NCBI GenBank assembly: GCA_020342155.1
Contig: CP070842.1
Span: forward strand, 1,172,594-1,236,593
DNA length: 64,000 nucleotides
Reading direction: 5' to 3'
From: Dehalococcoidales bacterium
GTDB taxonomy: Bacteria; Chloroflexota; Dehalococcoidia; Dehalococcoidales; Fen-1064
The position numbers and the translations under genes are program-made. Below the pieces are notes generated by a model. It ran no database searches. It was not told the origin of the DNA and was given only the letters and a program-made list of their open reading frames with translations. Of the stretch, positions 5,695 through 30,608 are shown piece after piece (positions within the stretch are counted from its first letter, which is position 1; each line of letters begins with the position of its first letter).

Positions 5695-6648
5695 TTAGTC
5701 ATCGTATGTGATCAGTTCTACGTCTATTTCACTAACGTAAACAAGGTTCATACCAAGGGTGAAAAGGAAACCATCCTGAACATTCTGTATAAATCGGATC
5801 GGGCCAACTTCATCATCGAAACGGGCAATGACCTGCTGTTGCCCCTCACTAAAAAAGTTGATACCAGCCATTGGTTTTATGAGAATCATGTCGAGAGAAA
5901 TGATTGCAGGGACATACTGAGGCTCGACATATGTCTTCTCCATATAGTCAGCGGCGATATAAAACTCCATTGTTTCCACGCTAGTCGGAGCGGAAGGATC
6001 AGATATATTGATAGTAAAATACGCTTTTCCATCCGTAACGTAATCTAGCTGAACTGCAAACCCGTTGTAGGCCTGACCTACAGTTAGACCGGTATTACTA
6101 TCTATTATGGGTATCGCCCTCAGATCCGATGATACTACATATGCATTGTGTGTATTCTGAGAATGCAGAATCCTATCCCTATTCAGTCTCTCTATATCCG
6201 CTTCTACTAGCAAAGCTCCTCCCTGAGGAAGGATACTACCATCGTCATAGATCACCCAGGTAGGCCTGTTGAACGAAGCAAAATGCTCATCAAAATCAGC
6301 GTTAAACCACAGGGCATTATTAAATGCTTCACTGGCATTAGATGGCCACCTGTCGACTATATATTTATACGCTTCAAGATTTTCGTGACGCTCGACAAAG
6401 TCGCCTTCTGCTAAAGATGGGAACAGTATCCCTATATATTCTTTAGCCTCGGGTGTTTGAGCCATATCAATCAACCTGGCTACTACCACCAGCTGAGCCT
6501 CATCATCCGTAAAAACCACATCTGATGTATTTGTACTACAAGCTGTGGTAGACAGTACGGTCACCAGCAGCACCACTAGAACACCCAGAGCAGTGCGCCA
6601 CCAGGAGCTTCGAAGATATTTGTTCATGAGTCGTCCTCTTTTCGTCAA
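5695..6648 (-). CDS. Hypothetical lipoprotein
   Basis: 317 aa. Hydrophobic N-terminal segment followed by TTAC|S lipobox-like cysteine. Confidence 0.75.
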   Translation of the reverse strand: MTKRGRLMNKYLRSSWWRTALGVLVVLLVTVLSTTACSTNTSDVVFTDDEAQLVVVARLIDMAQTPEAKEYIGILFPSLAEGDFVERHENLEAYKYIVDRWPSNASEAFNNALWFNADFDEHFASFNRPTWVIYDDGSILPQGGALLVEADIERLNRDRILHSQNTHNAYVVSSDLRAIPIIDSNTGLTVGQAYNGFAVQLDYVTDGKAYFTINISDPSAPTSVETMEFYIAADYMEKTYVEPQYVPAIISLDMILIKPMAGINFFSEGQQQVIARFDDEVGPIRFIQNVQDGFLFTLGMNLVYVSEIDVELITYDD

Positions 6649-22338: not shown

Positions 22339-23175
22339 GTGAATATCCTGGTAACCAACGATGACGGTATCGATGCCCCGGGACTATGGGCACTCGCCGA
22401 GGCGATGAACCGGGTTGGCGATACTATGGTCGTTGCCCCCGATAAGGAGCAGAGCGGCGTCGGCACGTCCGTCTCCCTACACAGCGGTGTGAAAGTCGAT
22501 GAGGTGCCTTCAAAAGTATCCGGTGTCGAAGCCTATGCCGTCGAAGGCACGCCGAGCGATTGCGTGATTGTCGGCCTCCGCCAGCTGGCCAAGGGACGAC
22601 ATATCGACATGGTTATCTCCGGGATTAATCCCGGGGCCAATACCGGTCGGGATATCCCCTACTCCGGTACTGTCATGGCTACGCTCCAGGGCTACTTCCG
22701 CAGGATACCGTCGATAGCCGTGTCCCTGGCCTATCGAGGACGTAGCGAAGAGCTACGCTACGATGTCGCCGCCAGGGTAGCCGAGTCACTGGCACACCGT
22801 GTAGAGGGCGGCAATATGCCGACCGACGTTATTATCAACACCAACATCCCCAATATCCCCCTGGCCGAAATCAAGGGCATGGTCACCACGCGGGCCGCCA
22901 CCGGCTCCTACTACAGCATCCCCCGGGGCAGGGGGAGCGAGAATACGAACCTATCGGTGCGTAATCTACCGACCATAGCCGACCTCCCTCATCATTCGGT
23001 TGGTGGCGTGGAACGGGTCATCGATGAAGGGACCGACATCTGGGCAATATTGTCCGACATGATATCGATTACGCCGCTGCGCATCGATGTTACCGACCAT
23101 GACTCCCTGACAGCCCTGGAAGAACACGTCACGGCGCTGCAGTCCGACCTGCTTGGAGACGGTAAGAGGATATAG
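22339..23175 (+). CDS. surE: 5'/3'-nucleotidase SurE
   Basis: MNILVTNDDGIDAPG N-terminus and GINPGANTG motif. GTG start. Confidence 0.92.
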   Translation: MNILVTNDDGIDAPGLWALAEAMNRVGDTMVVAPDKEQSGVGTSVSLHSGVKVDEVPSKVSGVEAYAVEGTPSDCVIVGLRQLAKGRHIDMVISGINPGANTGRDIPYSGTVMATLQGYFRRIPSIAVSLAYRGRSEELRYDVAARVAESLAHRVEGGNMPTDVIINTNIPNIPLAEIKGMVTTRAATGSYYSIPRGRGSENTNLSVRNLPTIADLPHHSVGGVERVIDEGTDIWAILSDMISITPLRIDVTDHDSLTALEEHVTALQSDLLGDGKRI

Positions 23176-23184
23176 GAGACGGCG

Positions 23185-23400
23185 ATGCCGATACGACCGA
23201 GCTGGTACGAAGACTACTGGGAAAAGCAGGACAAGAGCACTTCGAATAAGGTGAGGACGACCTGTCCCCGCTGCGGGAGCTCCAAGACCTATTACAACCA
23301 GCAGTACCAGACCTGGCGCTGCGGCCGCTGCGAGCACTCCTTTATTATTGAGGGCATGGGCCGGAGGCCCTGGTGGAAGCGGCTTTTCGGTAGGGGGTGA
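23185..23400 (+). CDS. Small zinc-ribbon protein
   Basis: 71 aa. CPRCGS...CGRCEH, a pair of CxxC motifs. Confidence 0.55.
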   Translation: MPIRPSWYEDYWEKQDKSTSNKVRTTCPRCGSSKTYYNQQYQTWRCGRCEHSFIIEGMGRRPWWKRLFGRG

Positions 23401-23480
23401 GAACGACCCACCCTCTCACCCCTTTCTTCAGTACATCAACTAATTTCAGTTAAAACTCCGCAACATAAGGACAACAGTCA

Positions 23481-23534
23481 ATGCTCCAAAATAATAAACC
23501 TCAAAAACCCCCGTTAAGACCCCTGAAGAGGTGA
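23481..23534 (+). repeat. Diverged copy of the trmH-family gene start (17 codons plus TGA), in frame with the downstream MBL gene
   Basis: ATGCTCCAAAATAATAAACCTCAAAAACCCCCGTTAAGACCCCTGAAGAGG versus 24801-24850 ATGCCCCAAAAATCTAATCCTCAAAAACCACCATTAAAGCCACTGAAATGG. 38/50 identical, ungapped, counted by eye. Peptides are MLQNNKPQKPPLRPLKR* versus MPQKSNPQKPPLKPLKW. Confidence 0.6.
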
Positions 23535-23537
23535 GAG

Positions 23538-24764
23538 ATGCTGGAGAGGAAAACTGGTATTCCCCTGGCTCCGCAGGAGCTGGACAAACAGAAGATTACC
23601 AGTGATATCTATACCGTCCAGCACAGCGTTGTCGGACAGGACGCCCACACGGCTTACACGAGCTGGGTAATCACCGAGGACGGTGTTGTGATAATCGACC
23701 CTGGCAGCTACCGGGTGTGCACCATGCTCAGGGAGGAAATGGACAAGGCCGGCCAACCAGTCAGGTATCTCATCTATACTCACGCGCATGGCGACCACAT
23801 TGGCGGTGCTGCTGCCTTTCTTGAGCAAGAACCAAAGGTCATCGCTCACGAAAACGCACTTGAGCGGCTACGCCGGTATGAAGTGACTGCCGGATACATC
23901 CGGCGTATCAACAGCATCCAGTTCCATTTCAATATTCCGGCCGGTATTCCGCCGCGGCGCTTCCCATCGGTCCATCCTACCGATACATATCATCACGAGT
24001 ACCGTTTTGAGCTGGGCGGGAAGACTTTCGAGCTGTTCCACGCTAAGGGTGAGACCGACGATTCCACTGTTATCTGGGTACCGCAGCTTAAAGCCGTCTT
24101 CCTCGGTGATTTGCTTGAGGCTTCCTTTCCCAACCTGGGCAACCCTTTCAAGGTGATGCGCTATGCCCACGAGTGGGCTATAGCGTTGGAAAAGGCTCTA
24201 GCTCTTAAACCCGAATTTGCTATCGGCGGTGACTGCGTTCTGACCAATAACAGGGAAATCAATGAAGTCCTGAGCGTGAATATTGAGCTGTTCAACTACC
24301 TGGAAGAATCCGTTGTCCGGGCAGCCAATGATGGTAAAAACCTGGAACAGATGATTGAAGAAATTCAGCTCCCGCCTCACCTGGCCGACAGCCCTTATCT
24401 GAAACAGGTCTATTCCCGGCGGGAGTTTGCCATCTACAATATCTGGCGGCGTTATTGCGGCTACTTTGACTTCTCGCCATCGGGGCTGCTACCGCGACCC
24501 AGGCGGGAGGTCGCCGGGGTGGTACGTCAGTTGATTGGTAACGACCAGGCCATTCTGCACAGGGCTGAGGAGTTGATGTACCAGGGTCAGTTGCAGCTCG
24601 CTCTGGAAACGCTGGATGTTATCCTGAAAGTGGACTACGAGGATATGGCAGCGCGCAGACTGAGGCATGAGATACTCCAGAAGATGGCGGAGACCGACGA
24701 ATGTTTGATGTCCCGCAATGTCTGGGTCTACTACCTTGAAGAGGACGAAAGCTTTCTGGGGTAA
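23538..24764 (+). CDS. MBL-fold metallo-hydrolase with an alkyl-sulfatase-type dimerisation domain
   Basis: 408 aa. HAHGDH motif. The C-terminal half resembles the alkyl-sulfatase dimerisation region. No SCP2 tail. Confidence 0.85.
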   Translation: MLERKTGIPLAPQELDKQKITSDIYTVQHSVVGQDAHTAYTSWVITEDGVVIIDPGSYRVCTMLREEMDKAGQPVRYLIYTHAHGDHIGGAAAFLEQEPKVIAHENALERLRRYEVTAGYIRRINSIQFHFNIPAGIPPRRFPSVHPTDTYHHEYRFELGGKTFELFHAKGETDDSTVIWVPQLKAVFLGDLLEASFPNLGNPFKVMRYAHEWAIALEKALALKPEFAIGGDCVLTNNREINEVLSVNIELFNYLEESVVRAANDGKNLEQMIEEIQLPPHLADSPYLKQVYSRREFAIYNIWRRYCGYFDFSPSGLLPRPRREVAGVVRQLIGNDQAILHRAEELMYQGQLQLALETLDVILKVDYEDMAARRLRHEILQKMAETDECLMSRNVWVYYLEEDESFLG

Positions 24765-24800
24765 GAAGGCTGATAGGGTCATCGGAAAGGGTAATTATTT

Positions 24801-25577
24801 ATGCCCCAAAAATCTAATCCTCAAAAACCACCATTAAAGCCACTGAAATGGTACCGGAAGCTGGCCGCCCGGAAGGGTCGGCTGGAAGCTGATGCCTTTA
24901 TCGTCGAGGGGGAGCGGGCGGTGAGGCAGGTCGTGGAAAGCCTGCCCGAGGAGGTACTCGAAATCGTCACGGTGGAAGGGATAGCCACCCCCTATCCCCA
25001 CTACCCCCTCCGGACGGTAACCGAGAGCCAGTTCCGCAGCATCTCCCAGGCACAGACCCCCCAGGGGCTCCTGGCCGTTGTCCGGCCACCCTGGCAGACC
25101 TATACCGACAGCGTACCCATAGACCCCGGTACGAGACTGCTCCTGCTGGACGACATCCAGGACCCAGGTAATGTCGGCACGCTCATCCGCACCGCCGCCG
25201 CCTTCGGCTTCTCCGGCGTCATCCTCACCGATAAAAGCGCCGACCCCTTTTCACCAAAGTGCGTGCAGGCCTCTGCCGGCAGTATTCTGTCAGTCTGGCT
25301 GCGAAGGACAGACGAGTACCTGAGGATGGTACAGGCACTGAAGAAGCGGGGCTATTTCGTGCTGGCCGCCGACCTCAACGGCAAGGAAGACACGTCGGTA
25401 TTCGATAAACGGAGATTGTTACTGCTGGCACTGGGGAATGAGGCTGCCGGACTCTCCGAGGAGATGCTGGCTGCGTCCGACTACCAGCTCAGGGTCCCCA
25501 TCGTCCGCGACAAGGCGGAGTCACTTAATGTCGCCACCTGTGGGGCAATCCTTATGTACCTGGTTACCCGGAAGTAG
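24801..25577 (+). CDS. TrmH/SpoU-family RNA 2'-O-methyltransferase
   Basis: 258 aa. Motifs DPGNVGTLIRTAAAFG, LGNEAAGLS and ESLNVATCGAILMY. Confidence 0.88.
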   Translation: MPQKSNPQKPPLKPLKWYRKLAARKGRLEADAFIVEGERAVRQVVESLPEEVLEIVTVEGIATPYPHYPLRTVTESQFRSISQAQTPQGLLAVVRPPWQTYTDSVPIDPGTRLLLLDDIQDPGNVGTLIRTAAAFGFSGVILTDKSADPFSPKCVQASAGSILSVWLRRTDEYLRMVQALKKRGYFVLAADLNGKEDTSVFDKRRLLLLALGNEAAGLSEEMLAASDYQLRVPIVRDKAESLNVATCGAILMYLVTRK

Positions 25578-26453
25578 CTACTGACCGGCACCGGTGGTAG
25601 AGGCCCTCCTGGCCTGATACCTCGTTTCACCCTTACTGAAGAGCCTTTCCTCTTCCTCGGTGGCAATTATCAGCGGCGGTACCCCGGTCGGCCTGCCCTC
25701 AGCATCAAGGGCCACCATGACTACATAGGCGGTCAACGCCTCGACCCTCTGGCCGGCAAGGAGGTCTTCCATTTCAAGCCGGACCTGCACCTCCATCGAG
25801 GAGCGGCTGGTGAAGGTGAGTCGCCCGCGAATAATTACCAGGCTGCCGACACGGACCGGACTGCGGAAAACGATATCATCAACCCGGCCGGTGACGATAT
25901 TGGTACGGCAGTGACGGGTAGCCACGACGCCAGCGGCATTGTCCATCAACTTCATCAGCTCGCCGCCGTGGACAAAGCCGGCCGGATTTGCCTGATTGGG
26001 CAACATCACCTGTGCCATCTCGACCGCCGAATGGCCTACCGTCCTGCCCTCGAATTCCCCGCCTTTCTCCAGCCCCTCGCGTAGCTTGTGATAGTTCGCC
26101 TCATGCCTCGCCTCAACCTTACTCATGCGGCGGAAGAAATTGGCAATCTCGGTAAAGCCCTCTGCCTCAGCGGTCTCGGCTGCTTTGGGATAGAAATGGG
26201 TGGCCTCGAGATGCTCACCCTTAATTGCCTGCTCCAGATTTTCCACGATGTCACCAAGGCCACCAAGGAACTCGAACTCATGCCGGGCATGTTCGGCCTC
26301 ATTCATGGCCGTGGCGGCAAACAGGTCGGCAATCTGCTCCAGACCGGCCTGCCTGGCAGCGTCGGCAAAGTAGCGATAGCGAGCACTGACACCCACCTCC
26401 GCCGAAAAGGCCTTCAACAGGACTTCCTCGGTCTTGCTTCCCTTCAGTTCCAT
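25578..26453 (-). CDS. Fusion protein: rubrerythrin-like diiron domain plus acyl-CoA thioesterase (hotdog) domain
   Basis: The N-terminal ~135 aa carry two ExxH motifs (NEAEHARH, KVEARHEA) and no rubredoxin CxxC pairs. The C-terminal ~150 aa match the YciA/BFIT-type hotdog pattern (MLPNQANPAGFVHGGELMKLMDNAAG...SSMEVQV). Confidence 0.85.
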   Translation of the reverse strand: MELKGSKTEEVLLKAFSAEVGVSARYRYFADAARQAGLEQIADLFAATAMNEAEHARHEFEFLGGLGDIVENLEQAIKGEHLEATHFYPKAAETAEAEGFTEIANFFRRMSKVEARHEANYHKLREGLEKGGEFEGRTVGHSAVEMAQVMLPNQANPAGFVHGGELMKLMDNAAGVVATRHCRTNIVTGRVDDIVFRSPVRVGSLVIIRGRLTFTSRSSMEVQVRLEMEDLLAGQRVEALTAYVVMVALDAEGRPTGVPPLIIATEEEERLFSKGETRYQARRASTTGAGQ

Positions 26454-27372: not shown

Positions 27373-27382
27373 TGACCCGCAT

Positions 27383-27455
27383 GGCAGCGTAGCTCAGTTG
27401 GTAGAGCAGAGGACTCATAAGCCTCGGGTCGTGGGTTCGAATCCCTCCGCTGCCA
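27383..27455 (+). tRNA. tRNA with CAU anticodon (elongator Met or Ile2), CCA not encoded
   Basis: Hand fold: GGCAGCG/TA/GCTC/AGTTGGTA/GAGC/A/GAGGA/CTCATAA/GCCTC/GGGTC/GTGGG/TTCGAAT/CCCTC/CGCTGCC/A. G1:C72 argues against an initiator. Two non-Watson-Crick pairs: A31-G39 and U50-U64. Confidence 0.9.
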
Positions 27456-27492
27456 GTTTTTATTTCGCCTGGCTAACACCAAATTATAGCAT
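27430..27492 (+). repeat. Repeat copy A: tRNA-Met T-arm/acceptor 3' part plus 3' flank (the functional gene end)
   Basis: CGTGGGTTCGAATCCCTCCGCTGCCAGTTTTTATTTCGCCTGGCTAACACCAAATTATAGCAT. Confidence 0.8.
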
Positions 27493-27538
27493 AACACCAG
27501 ACTTCGAGACGGCTTTCAATAAGAGGGATGAGTTAGAA

Positions 27539-28447
27539 ATGAGTATAATAACTTTTGCAACCATGTCCACCCAGAATAACCTCACGCGAGCCATTATATT
27601 ATTTGACAGCCTGCGAACGTTTGGCGGCGAACTTGCGGATTCTCATTGTATTATGCTTATCTCAGAGAAGGGAGAGCCTTTACCCGATAAAACAAGAGAG
27701 CAACTTAGTGCGCTAGATGTTAACCTAGTACATTTTGATATGGACAAGGGAGCCTTACGGTTTCCACTCGCTTCGCTGGTGTATGCCGCAGCCAGAGCAG
27801 AGCAGCAGGTACGGGATGAAACCGAAATATTGGTCTGGATGAATGAGGACACTCTGATAGTTAACCCGCCAGTGGGCTTTCTACTCGAAGAAGGTGTTAA
27901 TTTTGCGTATAGACCGGTACACCATACCAGGATTGGCTCAGTATACGATAAGCCCCTAGATGATTTCTGGTCAATGATATATCAGCACTGCGGTGTTACT
28001 GGAATAAATGCATTTCCGATGGAAACCTGCACTAGGGATAATGTCATCAGAGCATACTTCAACGCTGGTTTACTTGCTGTGAGACCGAAGCAGAGCCTCC
28101 TTGCGACATGGCTTGACTATTTTGAGCGACTATATCAGCATCCCGATTTTATACCATTCTTCAAGGATGACGTTCTTTATATGATATTCATGCACCAAGC
28201 AGTGCTATCAGGCGTTGTCCTGAGCATGTTTCAGAAAGACGAATTACTGGAACTCCCAGAGACCTTTAATTATCCACTCCATCTTCACCAAGAGTATCCT
28301 ATCGAATACCAACCTCAGGAACTTAATAATCTAATCACCTGCCGCTACGAAGGCATCGAAGATTTACGGAATTCCTTGAAGGCGATTCCAGCAGAAGAAC
28401 CCTTAAAAAGCTGGCTTGATGAGAGAATAGGGCTAACCGATATGTGA
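27539..28447 (+). CDS. Hypothetical protein, possibly a GT8-like nucleotide-diphospho-sugar transferase
   Basis: The track ORF (27398) reads through the tRNA, so ATG 27539 after AAGAGGGA is preferred. FNAGLLAVRP resembles the GT8 FN(S/A)G motif. The assignment is weak. Confidence 0.65.
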   Translation: MSIITFATMSTQNNLTRAIILFDSLRTFGGELADSHCIMLISEKGEPLPDKTREQLSALDVNLVHFDMDKGALRFPLASLVYAAARAEQQVRDETEILVWMNEDTLIVNPPVGFLLEEGVNFAYRPVHHTRIGSVYDKPLDDFWSMIYQHCGVTGINAFPMETCTRDNVIRAYFNAGLLAVRPKQSLLATWLDYFERLYQHPDFIPFFKDDVLYMIFMHQAVLSGVVLSMFQKDELLELPETFNYPLHLHQEYPIEYQPQELNNLITCRYEGIEDLRNSLKAIPAEEPLKSWLDERIGLTDM

Positions 28448-28452
28448 TAGCT

Positions 28453-28509
28453 TGTTTCCATCCTATGCTACCTTTCATTTCTTACCAAAGTACCTGCTTG
28501 ATTACAACA
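28453..28509 (+). repeat. Repeat copy B (degenerate)
   Basis: GTTTCCATCCTATGCTACCTTTCATTTCTTACCAAAGTACCTGCTTGATTACAACAT aligns to copy D (...GCTGCCAGTTTTTATTTCTCACCTAAGCACCTGCCTGATTATAGCAT). Confidence 0.55.
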
Positions 28510-28683
28510 TTACCTATGCGAATTGATCCGAACGCCTACACAATAAAAAGACTAGTAGAAATTTAGCGACCTGCTAGCCCAGTCACCTGTAGTGTCAGTA
28601 CTGGTATTCTACTCCGGAAAATTAACGTAATTAATTGTATAATGTGGAAAACAGAAATTTGCTTGAGGTGGGGGGAAGTAATA

Positions 28684-28875
28684 ATGTCTGAAATGAAGCA
28701 AACAATTCTTGAATCGTGGCCAGCCTTAAAAGAAAATTTGGGTAGTTTCTTATCTGACACAGACGCCTGGATAATTGCTGAGCTTAAGACTGCACATCAA
28801 GCTAAGGACTGGGAAACAGTATCCAAAATCATAGAGGTAATGGAATTTGTGCACGACATGCACCATTCACATTAA
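28684..28875 (+). CDS. Small hypothetical protein (63 aa)
   Basis: ATG 28684 is preceded by GAGGTGGGGGGAAG. No family recognised. Confidence 0.45.
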   Translation: MSEMKQTILESWPALKENLGSFLSDTDAWIIAELKTAHQAKDWETVSKIIEVMEFVHDMHHSH

Positions 28876-28901
28876 CTAAGCATGGCCCTCATACATTTAG
28901 T

Positions 28902-28964
28902 CGTGGGGTCGAATCCCTCCGCTGCCACTGCCTAGATTTCCCATGCCACCACCAGATTATTTCA
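28902..28964 (+). repeat. Repeat copy C
   Basis: CGTGGGGTCGAATCCCTCCGCTGCCACTGCCTAGATTTCCCATGCCACCACCAGATTATTTCA. Similarity may extend back to CTCATA at 28888-28893, the anticodon loop. Confidence 0.7.
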
Positions 28965-29714
28965 AACAGAGTCGATTCGCTTCCGCATTCTACTCCATGT
29001 GTTTGTAATGAGGAAACTCTCCTCCATGTTGTCAATCATCCGGGTGAATTTGCTAATAGGTACTGATAACGTTATTACATCCGGTGGTACAAAGGGCCTT
29101 GCCGAAGGATCGAACATGCCAACTATTGCCTTAGGATGCTCTGAGTCCTTTTCAAGGTAGGGATACTGCACAATAGTGGAACAGCCAGAACCAAATGGAG
29201 CGGACACCGCATTTCTATCAACTTCATCAAATCGGGCAAGGGTGAAGAGTCCTGATAGAACGTCAGGTTTCGCATAAAAAATGACAACTTCTGGATTATC
29301 TGATTCCTCTAACCTGTCCCATCTCTTGAACACTATAAACCGACCTGGTGCTTGAAATGTTGGCGTGTTCTTCATTATCTCCTTAACAAGCTCCGGTGAT
29401 TTACAGTAACGTTCGCCCTCCAGTCTTCCCGGAATCCCATAGGAGAGGAAATATTCAAAACCAGGCATGATACCCTCAGCAAATCCAAGATATCTTTTCC
29501 CTCCAGGACAACCGATCGAGTCTGCGTCAAAATATAGAGAATTCCCTTTCCTCACATCCGTTAACGCACCAATCACACACCTAGACACAGACTCTGGCTC
29601 AACCGACTGCGCATGTCCTTCCTCATCCGTGTAATAGAAAGTAATGGGTAGTTCGGCACCACCAAAGTACTTGCTCCAAAGCCGGGTGAATGTGTCCCTG
29701 GTATGCATGTCCAT
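28962..29714 (-). CDS. DUF169-family protein
   Basis: 250 aa. Typical DUF169 pattern (ITFYYTDE...CVIGAL...GCPGGKRYLGF). Confidence 0.85.
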   Translation of the reverse strand: MDMHTRDTFTRLWSKYFGGAELPITFYYTDEEGHAQSVEPESVSRCVIGALTDVRKGNSLYFDADSIGCPGGKRYLGFAEGIMPGFEYFLSYGIPGRLEGERYCKSPELVKEIMKNTPTFQAPGRFIVFKRWDRLEESDNPEVVIFYAKPDVLSGLFTLARFDEVDRNAVSAPFGSGCSTIVQYPYLEKDSEHPKAIVGMFDPSARPFVPPDVITLSVPISKFTRMIDNMEESFLITNTWSRMRKRIDSV

Positions 29715-29752
29715 TGAACACCTCCTCGATTATGAATGAGTCAGTAAAAAGG

Positions 29753-29854
29753 GGAAATGGTAAAGCAGCCTCTCGCTTTCCCACTTATCGGTAGTTCGAA
29801 TCCCTCCGCTGCCAGTTTTTATTTCTCACCTAAGCACCTGCCTGATTATAGCAT
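29753..29854 (+). repeat. Repeat copy D (extended; near full-length pseudo-tRNA plus flank)
   Basis: GGAAATGGTAAAGCAGCCTCTCGCTTTCCCACTTATCGGTAGTTCGAATCCCTCCGCTGCCAGTTTTTATTTCTCACCTAAGCACCTGCCTGATTATAGCAT. Confidence 0.75.
29845..29853 (-). promoter_or_regulatory. Extended -10 (TGCTATAAT on the minus strand) inside repeat D
   Basis: Plus-strand ATTATAGCA, about 130 nt upstream of the DUF169 start on the minus strand. Confidence 0.35.
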
Positions 29855-29933
29855 ATCGTTTAGCTTATACATTTCTCGATAACTGCTAACAACTGCTACA
29901 ATAATCTTATTACACAAGGGAGGTAAGAGACCA

Positions 29934-30500
29934 ATGGAAGCGAAGATAACCTATTTCGAAACCCCGGGTAGAGATAACACAGATGCTGTAATGGAGATTG
30001 TAAAGCAGCGTGCTCAGGAACTCGAAATCGAGACGGTTGTTGTCGCATCATATCGTGGCTACACTGCTGAAAAGGCAGTACGTGCGCTTGACGGTATGAA
30101 AATAGTTGTTATCGCCGGATTTCCACATCCAACAATGGATAACCTGGAGGAAACCTTTGCACAGGGTGACGAGAAACTTATCAAGGATAAGGCTACAGTA
30201 CTTATTGCCACACATTTTTTCTCCGGGATGAGTCGCGCAATACGGAAAAAGTACAACTCTTCAAGCCCTGAGGAACTTGTTGCTCAGGCATTAAGAATGA
30301 TGTGTAGCGGTGTAAAGGTCGGTATTGAGTGCACAATCATGGCTGCTGATGCAGGCTTGGTACGTACTGACGAGGATATTATCGCCATTGCCGGTACAGG
30401 TAGTGGTGCCGATGCAGCTATCTTGGTTAGACCTGTAAACTCACAGGACTTCTTTGACCTCAAGGTGAAAGAGATACTGTGCAAGCCGCGGAACTGGTGA
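29934..30500 (+). CDS. Pyruvate kinase alpha/beta (C-terminal) domain-like protein
   Basis: 188 aa. The pattern YFETPGRDNT...VVVASYRGYTA...IAIAGTG is typical of stand-alone PK_C-like proteins. Confidence 0.8.
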   Translation: MEAKITYFETPGRDNTDAVMEIVKQRAQELEIETVVVASYRGYTAEKAVRALDGMKIVVIAGFPHPTMDNLEETFAQGDEKLIKDKATVLIATHFFSGMSRAIRKKYNSSSPEELVAQALRMMCSGVKVGIECTIMAADAGLVRTDEDIIAIAGTGSGADAAILVRPVNSQDFFDLKVKEILCKPRNW

Positions 30501-30508
30501 TATGTAGA

Positions 30509-30608
30509 GGAAATGATTAAACAGCTTCTCACTTTATCACTAATCGGTAGTTCGAATCCCTCCGCTACCAGTATTTTATTTTACCTAAGTACACCATCTG
30601 AAAATTAA
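30509..30608 (+). repeat. Repeat copy E (extended, like D)
   Basis: GGAAATGATTAAACAGCTTCTCACTTTATCACTAATCGGTAGTTCGAATCCCTCCGCTACCAGTATTTTATTTTACCTAAGTACACCATCTGAAAATTAACT. About 80-85% identical to D by eye. Confidence 0.75.

Follow-up and report, generated by a model that had tools for sequence, protein, structure and literature searches.

A single MBL-fold gene between two copies of the znr-trmH gene junction in a Dehalococcoidales genus: the probable scar of an old insertion with long target duplication

The subject of this report is a metallo-β-lactamase (MBL)-fold gene and the repeats on its two sides in a window of 64,000 nucleotides (nt), the whole stretch of DNA that was analysed, from a Dehalococcoidales bacterium (assembly GCA_020342155.1, contig CP070842.1; genome G000 below). 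The gene, called here MBL, takes the third place in a row of four co-directional genes of the plus strand, surE, znr, MBL and trmH (Table 1), and the beginning of trmH recurs immediately in front of it. The initial annotation of the window had counted by eye 38 identities over 50 ungapped nt between the trmH start and its upstream copy, with the similarity beginning exactly at the ATG in both; the count was reproduced by our own, and the 60 nt located 5' of the two ATGs are identical at 15 positions of 60, that is, at the chance level. The encoded peptides, the TGA at 23532-23534, the frame shared with the MBL ATG at 23538 and the presence of a single gene between the copies were likewise all found as claimed.

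The repeat search returned one direct-repeat family, 23481-23544 and 24801-24864, with a length of 64 nt, an identity of 73% and a spacing of 1320 nt. With a proper local alignment of the two neighbourhoods, as had been advised in the annotation, the similarity survived: the score was 44 vs. 17.0±2.2 in 300 shuffles, none of which (0/300) reached 44, and the optimal alignment paired 23481-23527 with 24801-24847, with 37 of the 47 positions identical. In the 2.30-Mb genome, a single contig, the repeat sequence occurs twice and no more (E 7.9e-5). Within the window, the homology of the upstream copy stops at 23527, and the next 17 nt (GAGGTGAGAGATGCTGG vs. TGGTACCGGAAGCTGG) are not homologous, GAGGTGAGAGATGCTGG being the MBL Shine-Dalgarno sequence together with the start codon. 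The resemblance of GAGGTGAGAGATGCTGG to TGGTACCGGAAGCTGG is coincidental, and so is the weak similarity that had been thought to continue into the MBL N-terminus (LERKTG vs. LAARKG). The 30-mer that contains the TGA is identical in four independent assemblies, those of G000, its congeners G001 and G002, and the metagenome contig L061; therefore, the TGA is not a sequencing error.

The repeat of the window corresponds to the trmH side of a gene-gene junction that has been duplicated as a whole, and the larger structure is seen in the sister species G003. The most complete form of the arrangement has been preserved there: 130 nt immediately 5' of the MBL region can be aligned to 134 nt immediately 3' of it, with 107 of the 124 ungapped columns identical and a score of 107 vs. 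17.6±2.1 in shuffles. The duplicated segment extends from ~45 nt before the znr stop (...RPWWKRLLGRG, stop), across a 10-nt gap, to about codon 28 of trmH, and the order of the parts in G003 is as follows: znr (full), trmH-start relic, ~70 nt, MBL, 20 nt, znr-end relic, and trmH (full). Both the left and the right copies align to the contiguous sequence of the znr end and the trmH start, i.e., to the single-copy target. The mirror-image relic of the znr 3' end, situated after the MBL stop and before the trmH ATG (24765-24800 in the window), is weak in G000 and clear in G001, G002 and G003, in which the orthologous spacers read ...CC(A/C)TGGTGGAAGCG...GGTAG, which is the end of znr; both relics are present in G001, G002 and L061. 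The duplication is thus longer than 30 bp and far exceeds the target duplications of transposons, amounting to ~130 nt in G003, and 47 nt of it plus remnants survive in G000.

The copies also correspond to one another across the species, the G000 relic matching the G003 trmH start at 94% over 33 nt, and the G000 trmH start matching the G003 relic at 93%. The trmH N-terminus ...PLKPLKWYRKLAARKGRLEA is conserved order-wide, and the starts of the MBL proteins are independent of the context, as described below; hence, of the two copies, the working start of trmH is the downstream one, and the upstream one is a fragment derived from it. Substitutions particular to a species are found in both the functional znr end and the relic of the same genome, namely, GCGTTTATT (GTTTATT) in G003 and GCGGCTCTT.GGGAGAGG (GGCTCTT.GGGAGAGG) in G002, and, consequently, the copies have exchanged sequence by gene conversion, which helps explain why the old duplication is still recognisable.

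The order znr, MBL, trmH is common to the other three species of the genus of this bacterium (g1), which are G001, G002 and G003, and to L061, and an MBL gene at the znr/trmH junction was found only in g1. In G005 (g3, L016) and G008 (g6, L014), which represent more distant genera of the family, the site is empty: surE, znr and trmH are contiguous, the znr orthologs adjoin trmH directly on its upstream side, and the junction exists in one copy with no MBL. The comparison of the surE/znr/trmH synteny with and without MBL, which had been proposed in the annotation, has given, therefore, a contiguous block in these two genomes and the MBL gene in all four genus members. The empty site is the ancestral one, and the presence of MBL at znr/trmH is derived and specific to the genus. 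In the scans of the collection with trmH, the matches were dominated by the generic SpoU motif; four useful loci came from the metagenome contigs and none from the genome contigs.

Other cargo was found in the same slot in the sister genus g4, namely, the genes of an HTH-IrrE/M78 peptidase and a DUF4411 protein in G016 (L221, G016:C68) and L062 (646-2303), and the gene of an Mrr restriction endonuclease in L063 (1472-2380). The junction of G002 carries two extra genes besides MBL, for a DUF4145 protein after znr and a 166-amino-acid (aa) open reading frame (ORF) before trmH (L023 746-1408 and 2910-3410). None of these inserts shows a detectable copy of the junction. The znr/trmH junction is an insertion hotspot for defence and accessory genes. 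On the other side of trmH, a gene of a rubrerythrin-thioesterase (4HBT) fusion (25578-26453, minus strand) stands between trmH and a HAD gene in g1, G012 and L062 and is not at that position in G005, G008 and G016; it is a further variable insertion in the surE-znr-trmH block.

Table 1. Genes, junction copies and signals at the znr/trmH junction (positions of the window)
Feature	Position	Strand	Evidence and remarks
surE, 5'/3'-nucleotidase	22339..23175	+	PF01975 E 2e-55; opens the conserved surE-znr-trmH block; syntenic in g1, g3, g4, g6
znr, 71-aa zinc-ribbon protein, left neighbour of the insertion	23185..23400	+	ORF; PF12760 match weak, under the curated cut-off
Z2, znr-3' part of the left junction copy, still the functional znr end	23359..23400	+	aligns with the relics 3' of MBL in G001, G002, G003
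80-nt spacer, znr stop to relic	23401..23480		gap only 10 nt in G003
T1', left junction copy of trmH nt 1-47, a decaying relic	23481..23527	+	37/47 vs. 24801-24847
17-codon ORF, MLQNNKPQKPPLRPLKR and stop	23481..23534	+	not kept as an ORF in the sister species
MBL Shine-Dalgarno GAGGTGA	23528..23534	+	ends with the 'interrupting' TGA; the equivalent position in G003 reads GGAGGAG
MBL cargo, 408 aa, MBL fold and alkyl-sulfatase dimerisation domain	23538..24764	+	PF00753, PF14863
Z2', remnant of the right-hand znr-3' relic	24765..24800	+	mostly deleted; the retained end carries the trmH ribosome-binding region
T1, right junction copy, working trmH start	24801..24847	+	N-terminal motif PLKPLKWYRKLA conserved across the order
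trmH/SpoU-family RNA 2'-O-methyltransferase, right neighbour of the insertion	24801..25577	+	PF00588 E 9e-34, PF22435; orthologs in 17 relatives

The cargo itself encodes an SdsA1-like protein without the SCP2-like C-terminal domain (408 aa vs. 658), the best PDB match of which is SdsA1 2cfu (E 3e-19, residues 54-392) and which contains HAHGDH, an HxHxDH motif. Twelve MBL orthologs, found in at least six unrelated contexts, begin with M(L/V)(E/R)RK..G.P whatever is upstream; therefore, the MBL protein never had the trmH-like peptide as its N-terminal extension. The proposal of the annotation that a former N-terminal extension of MBL had been cut by a nonsense codon is refuted by these uniform starts and by the position of the TGA inside the Shine-Dalgarno sequence GAGGTGA. 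The orthologs are 59-70% identical and form one clade per genus, with different flanking genes in each genus examined. Between the loci L059 and L060, the MBL genes of which have 84% DNA identity, the shared stretch is restricted to the coding sequence (CDS) with 13 nt upstream and 8 nt downstream, from which it follows that the relocating unit is a bare gene with its ribosome-binding site. In the L060 locus, which belongs to G041, the MBL stop is followed directly by 61 nt that copy (80%) the 3' end of the 311-aa gene located upstream (...LKKACRGRREAPSS); the slot at this site holds different DNA in the relative G045. A gene end has thus been duplicated around a related MBL gene for a second time, independently and at an unrelated site. 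The other MBL orthologs, and 16 paralog loci with enough flank, had no repeats on their sides, and, therefore, the scar does not characterise the gene family as such. A 59-nt, 93% repeat around the MBL gene of L057 was also considered as a target duplication and rejected, since it is dispersed, having more copies in that genome and its relatives. An attC would not fit at the 3' end of the gene: the homology between L059 and L060 ends 8 nt past the stop, and in G003 the znr relic follows the MBL stop after only 20 nt.

The repeat is explained, with high probability, by an old single-gene insertion with long target duplication. One gene, consisting of the MBL CDS with its own ribosome-binding site (~1.3 kb), would have been inserted at the tight znr/trmH junction in the common ancestor of the genus, landing within the surE-znr-trmH transcription unit. 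About 130 nt of target DNA, comprising the terminal ~45 nt of znr and trmH up to about codon 28, would have been duplicated by the insertion, one copy being left on each side, with znr (full), trmH-start relic, MBL, znr-end relic and trmH (full) as the product. Because the junction was copied, znr would have kept its 3' end and stop, and trmH its ribosome-binding site and start, and a promoterless gene could in this manner enter the operon without harming either neighbour. The insertion and the duplication of the target would have been one event, and the decay of the redundant halves has taken a different course in each species. The candidate routes include the fill-in of widely staggered breaks, replicative template switching, and the single-crossover integration of a circle with a copy of the junction. 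No transposase, integrase or other mobility gene was found in or next to the insert, the MBL CDS being its only content, and the search of G000 (single contig, 2.3 Mb, estimated 94% complete) gave no match to Ku (PF02735) or ComEC (PF03772), the former result arguing against Ku-type end joining. Among the readings offered in the annotation was the footprint of a single-gene insertion into the 5' end of trmH, with an element-borne replacement of the gene start. Its geometry was borne out, and the reading was incomplete, as the whole znr-3'/trmH-5' junction has been duplicated (~130 nt in G003); the useless znr-end relic in the right copy is better fitted by a duplicated target than by an element-borne replacement start, although the two are not strictly separable.

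Several circumstances weigh against the insertion with target duplication. No empty-site member was found inside genus g1. No junction duplication was detected around the other cargo of the junction (G016/L062, L063), and not every insertion at znr/trmH leaves a duplication scar, other mechanisms also acting at the hotspot. The event is old, being common to all four genus members, and the boundaries between the insert and the target are too diverged to read microhomology. The ~130 nt of G003 are a lower bound on the original length of the duplication, and gene conversion has blurred its history, the divergence of the copies being unable to date the event. Finally, the published cases concern mostly restriction-modification genes in naturally competent species, whereas the cargo here is a metabolic-type enzyme and ComEC was not found in G000.

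The course of the decay is evident from the comparison of the four species. The relic continues in G003 as ...CTGAAATGGTACCGGAAGCTGGTTGC..., with the MBL start CTGAGGAGGAGAGATG ~90 nt further on, the true continuation of the relic (ATGGTACCGGAAGCTGG...) being placed ~90 nt upstream of the MBL start, while G000, G001 and G002 read CCCCTGAAGAGGTGAGAGATG where G003 has ~90 nt more. The CCCCTGAAGAGGTGAGAGATG form would result most simply from a deletion between two CTGA motifs. This ~90-nt deletion in the G000/G001/G002 branch would have brought the relic into direct contact with the Shine-Dalgarno sequence of MBL and, by accident, made the in-frame 17-codon ORF. The distance from the znr stop to the relic ATG was enlarged in the same branch, by an inserted 80 nt in general and to ~700 nt in G002, where it holds the DUF4145 gene; the spacer is a later addition in this branch, being absent in G003. 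The znr stop region carried a ribosome-binding site that was copied along with the relic, and the 80-nt spacer has separated the relic ATG from this old site. On the right side, G000 has lost most of the znr-end relic. The relic ORF consists of 17 codons in G000, 11 in G002 (MSQNTNPQNPR and stop, after a frameshift), 7 in G001 (MPQNTDP and stop, after an internal deletion) and 42 in G003, neither its frame nor its length being conserved among these close relatives. No Rfam family matches the relic region, and the promoter and terminator scans of the region gave matches at the chance level. The changes of the relic are neutral decay and not those of a conserved leader.

The upstream copy might, alternatively, function as a short upstream ORF (uORF) or leader, the translation of which is coupled to the initiation of MBL by a stop located 3 nt before the MBL ATG, and a coupled ORF of 17 codons had been among the readings of the annotation. 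An ATG-started short ORF does end about 35 nt or less upstream of the MBL ATG in all four species, and its stop in G000 overlaps the Shine-Dalgarno sequence. However, the frame, length and peptide differ in every species, the relic ATG in G000, G001 and G002 has been displaced by 80 to ~700 nt from its ribosome-binding site, and neither the RNA family search nor the promoter scan described above gave a signal; a conserved 17-codon uORF is, therefore, unsupported, and the probability of a functional leader is close to negligible. Somewhat more credible, and still improbable, is the origin of the second junction copy from the element itself, if a circle with MBL and the znr/trmH junction were integrated by a Campbell-type crossover or by a trans-acting site-specific recombinase for which the junction served as attB. 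The geometry is the same as that of a single-crossover insertion-duplication (attL/attR-like), the direct repeats would permit excision as a circle with one copy, the junction repeatedly takes other cargo (IrrE/DUF4411, Mrr, DUF4145 with the 166-aa ORF), and the window also contains a cassette array anchored at tRNA-Met, in which the 3' end of the tRNA is repeated. On the other hand, there is no integrase in the insert or within 160 kb of it, the three full tyrosine-recombinase and two small serine-recombinase matches obtained with PF00589 and PF00239 in the whole of G000 being all situated >160 kb from the window; the other cargoes at the junction lack the junction copies; and the circle of MBL with the junction could be made only by a prior illegitimate event. 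Moreover, L060 duplicates a wholly different sequence, and there is no att core common to the independent sites.

A multi-step rearrangement, in which a tandem duplication from inside znr to beyond MBL was followed by internal deletions, might also produce the same order of parts. Tandem duplications and deletions are common, and later deletions have occurred at this very locus (one of ~90 nt in the branch of G000 and another, internal, in G001), but this path requires MBL to have been near trmH beforehand, and in g4 it is on another contig, none being located within at least 20 kb of trmH (48.9-kb contig). At least three events would be necessary, with breakpoints hugging one CDS, and the same outcome must recur around the related MBL gene of G041, which makes such a rearrangement very improbable, if slightly less so than the leader.

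A wider generalisation would be that a hitherto unrecognised process of the Dehalococcoidales, either recombinase-free or driven by an enzyme acting in trans, moves bare genes into core-gene junctions with the copying of 60 to at least 130 nt, that MBL has been moved by it at least twice (here and in G041), and that it has also produced the tRNA-Met array and the other 'gene-end stub' cassettes of G000; this we consider rather unlikely. If it were true, both neighbours would keep their ends, and the newcomer would be expressed from the host operon. The array in question begins with tRNA-Met(CAU) at 27382-27456, partial copies of the 3' end of which are found at ~28899, 29791 and 30547, each after a unit of 0.75-1.5 kb (array 27382-30571). 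The geometry of the MBL locus had been said in the annotation to echo this array, which is a fair analogy that extends to the geometry only.

A genome-wide cassette mechanism was also tried as a candidate and set aside. The self-BLAST of G000 gave many direct-repeat pairs of 35-157 nt that closely bracket single ORFs, which, by the copy counts and the comparison with G001-G003, belonged mostly to dispersed families or tRNA 3' fragments; about six of the bracketing pairs are genome-unique. Three further genome-unique pairs, located in G000:C1 outside the window at 979450-980872 (97 nt at 93%), 1383367-1386043 (55 nt at 98%) and 449832-453937 (~160-240 nt), look similar to the MBL pair, the start or end of an adjacent gene recurring beyond one or two inserted genes. 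In the empty-site test of the pair 979450/980776, the flanks were on different contigs in the relatives. One of the dispersed families, an intergenic repeat of ~55-75 nt with the near-perfect palindrome TGGACAAACATCCCGATGTTTGTCCA, was observed in ~20 BLAST copies in G000, 8 of them with the full palindrome, and in many copies in G001-G003; its sites in G000:C1, all outside the window, are 1456473, 1457715, 1458683, 1460054, 1649100, 1016758, 884542 and 456635, and a variant of it stands ~190 nt upstream of the L059 MBL ortholog (L059 ~5795-5820). This palindrome repeat looks like a candidate operator of a regulator.

For the annotation of the genome, the locus contains no broken MBL protein, recoding or leader peptide; it is an ordinary, well-resolved scar of a known kind of event. 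It offers a multi-species example of long target duplication with a cargo other than restriction-modification genes, the mechanism of such insertion having been unexplained since 2000. Such scars may persist, as the duplication of a tight gene-gene junction admits a newcomer to an operon and leaves the neighbours undamaged.

Insertion with long target duplication (Nobusato, Uchiyama, Ohashi, Kobayashi 2000, cited as ref. 37 in Furuta, Abe, Kobayashi 2010, PMC2853133) is recognised, according to PMC2853133, by an insert without any other mobile element and by genome-unique flanking repeats of >30 bp whose sequence aligns to the target. The published cases and the MBL locus are alike in that a small unit without a transposase or integrase is placed between chromosomal genes and is flanked by direct repeats that exceed 30 bp, align to a sequence present once in genomes without the insert, are genome-unique and have a length specific to each case. 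The differences are that the published cases are recent and near-identical, whereas the present one is ancient (genus-wide), with repeats 73-86% identical; that the cargo is MBL/alkyl-sulfatase-like instead of restriction-modification; and that the duplication spans a gene-gene junction, leaving two mirror-image pseudo-ends. The Campbell-type single-crossover integration yields the same order of target copy, insert and target copy, with one functional copy of each interrupted end, but it requires a circular donor with a segment of the target, and the insert here is a bare CDS with no donor, plasmid backbone or replication gene. Integron cassettes and tRNA-anchored arrays resemble the locus by having promoterless single genes at a fixed place, with expression provided from outside and with variable cargo in each slot; unlike them, it has no attC, no IntI and no repeat common between the sites, its repeats being copies of the local target. 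In the core-gene hotspots maintained by recombination in the flanks, different accessory or defence genes are likewise found in related lineages, and the site is empty in others; however, the exchange of flanks alone makes no duplicated junction, and the duplication at the znr/trmH junction records a primary non-homologous insertion.

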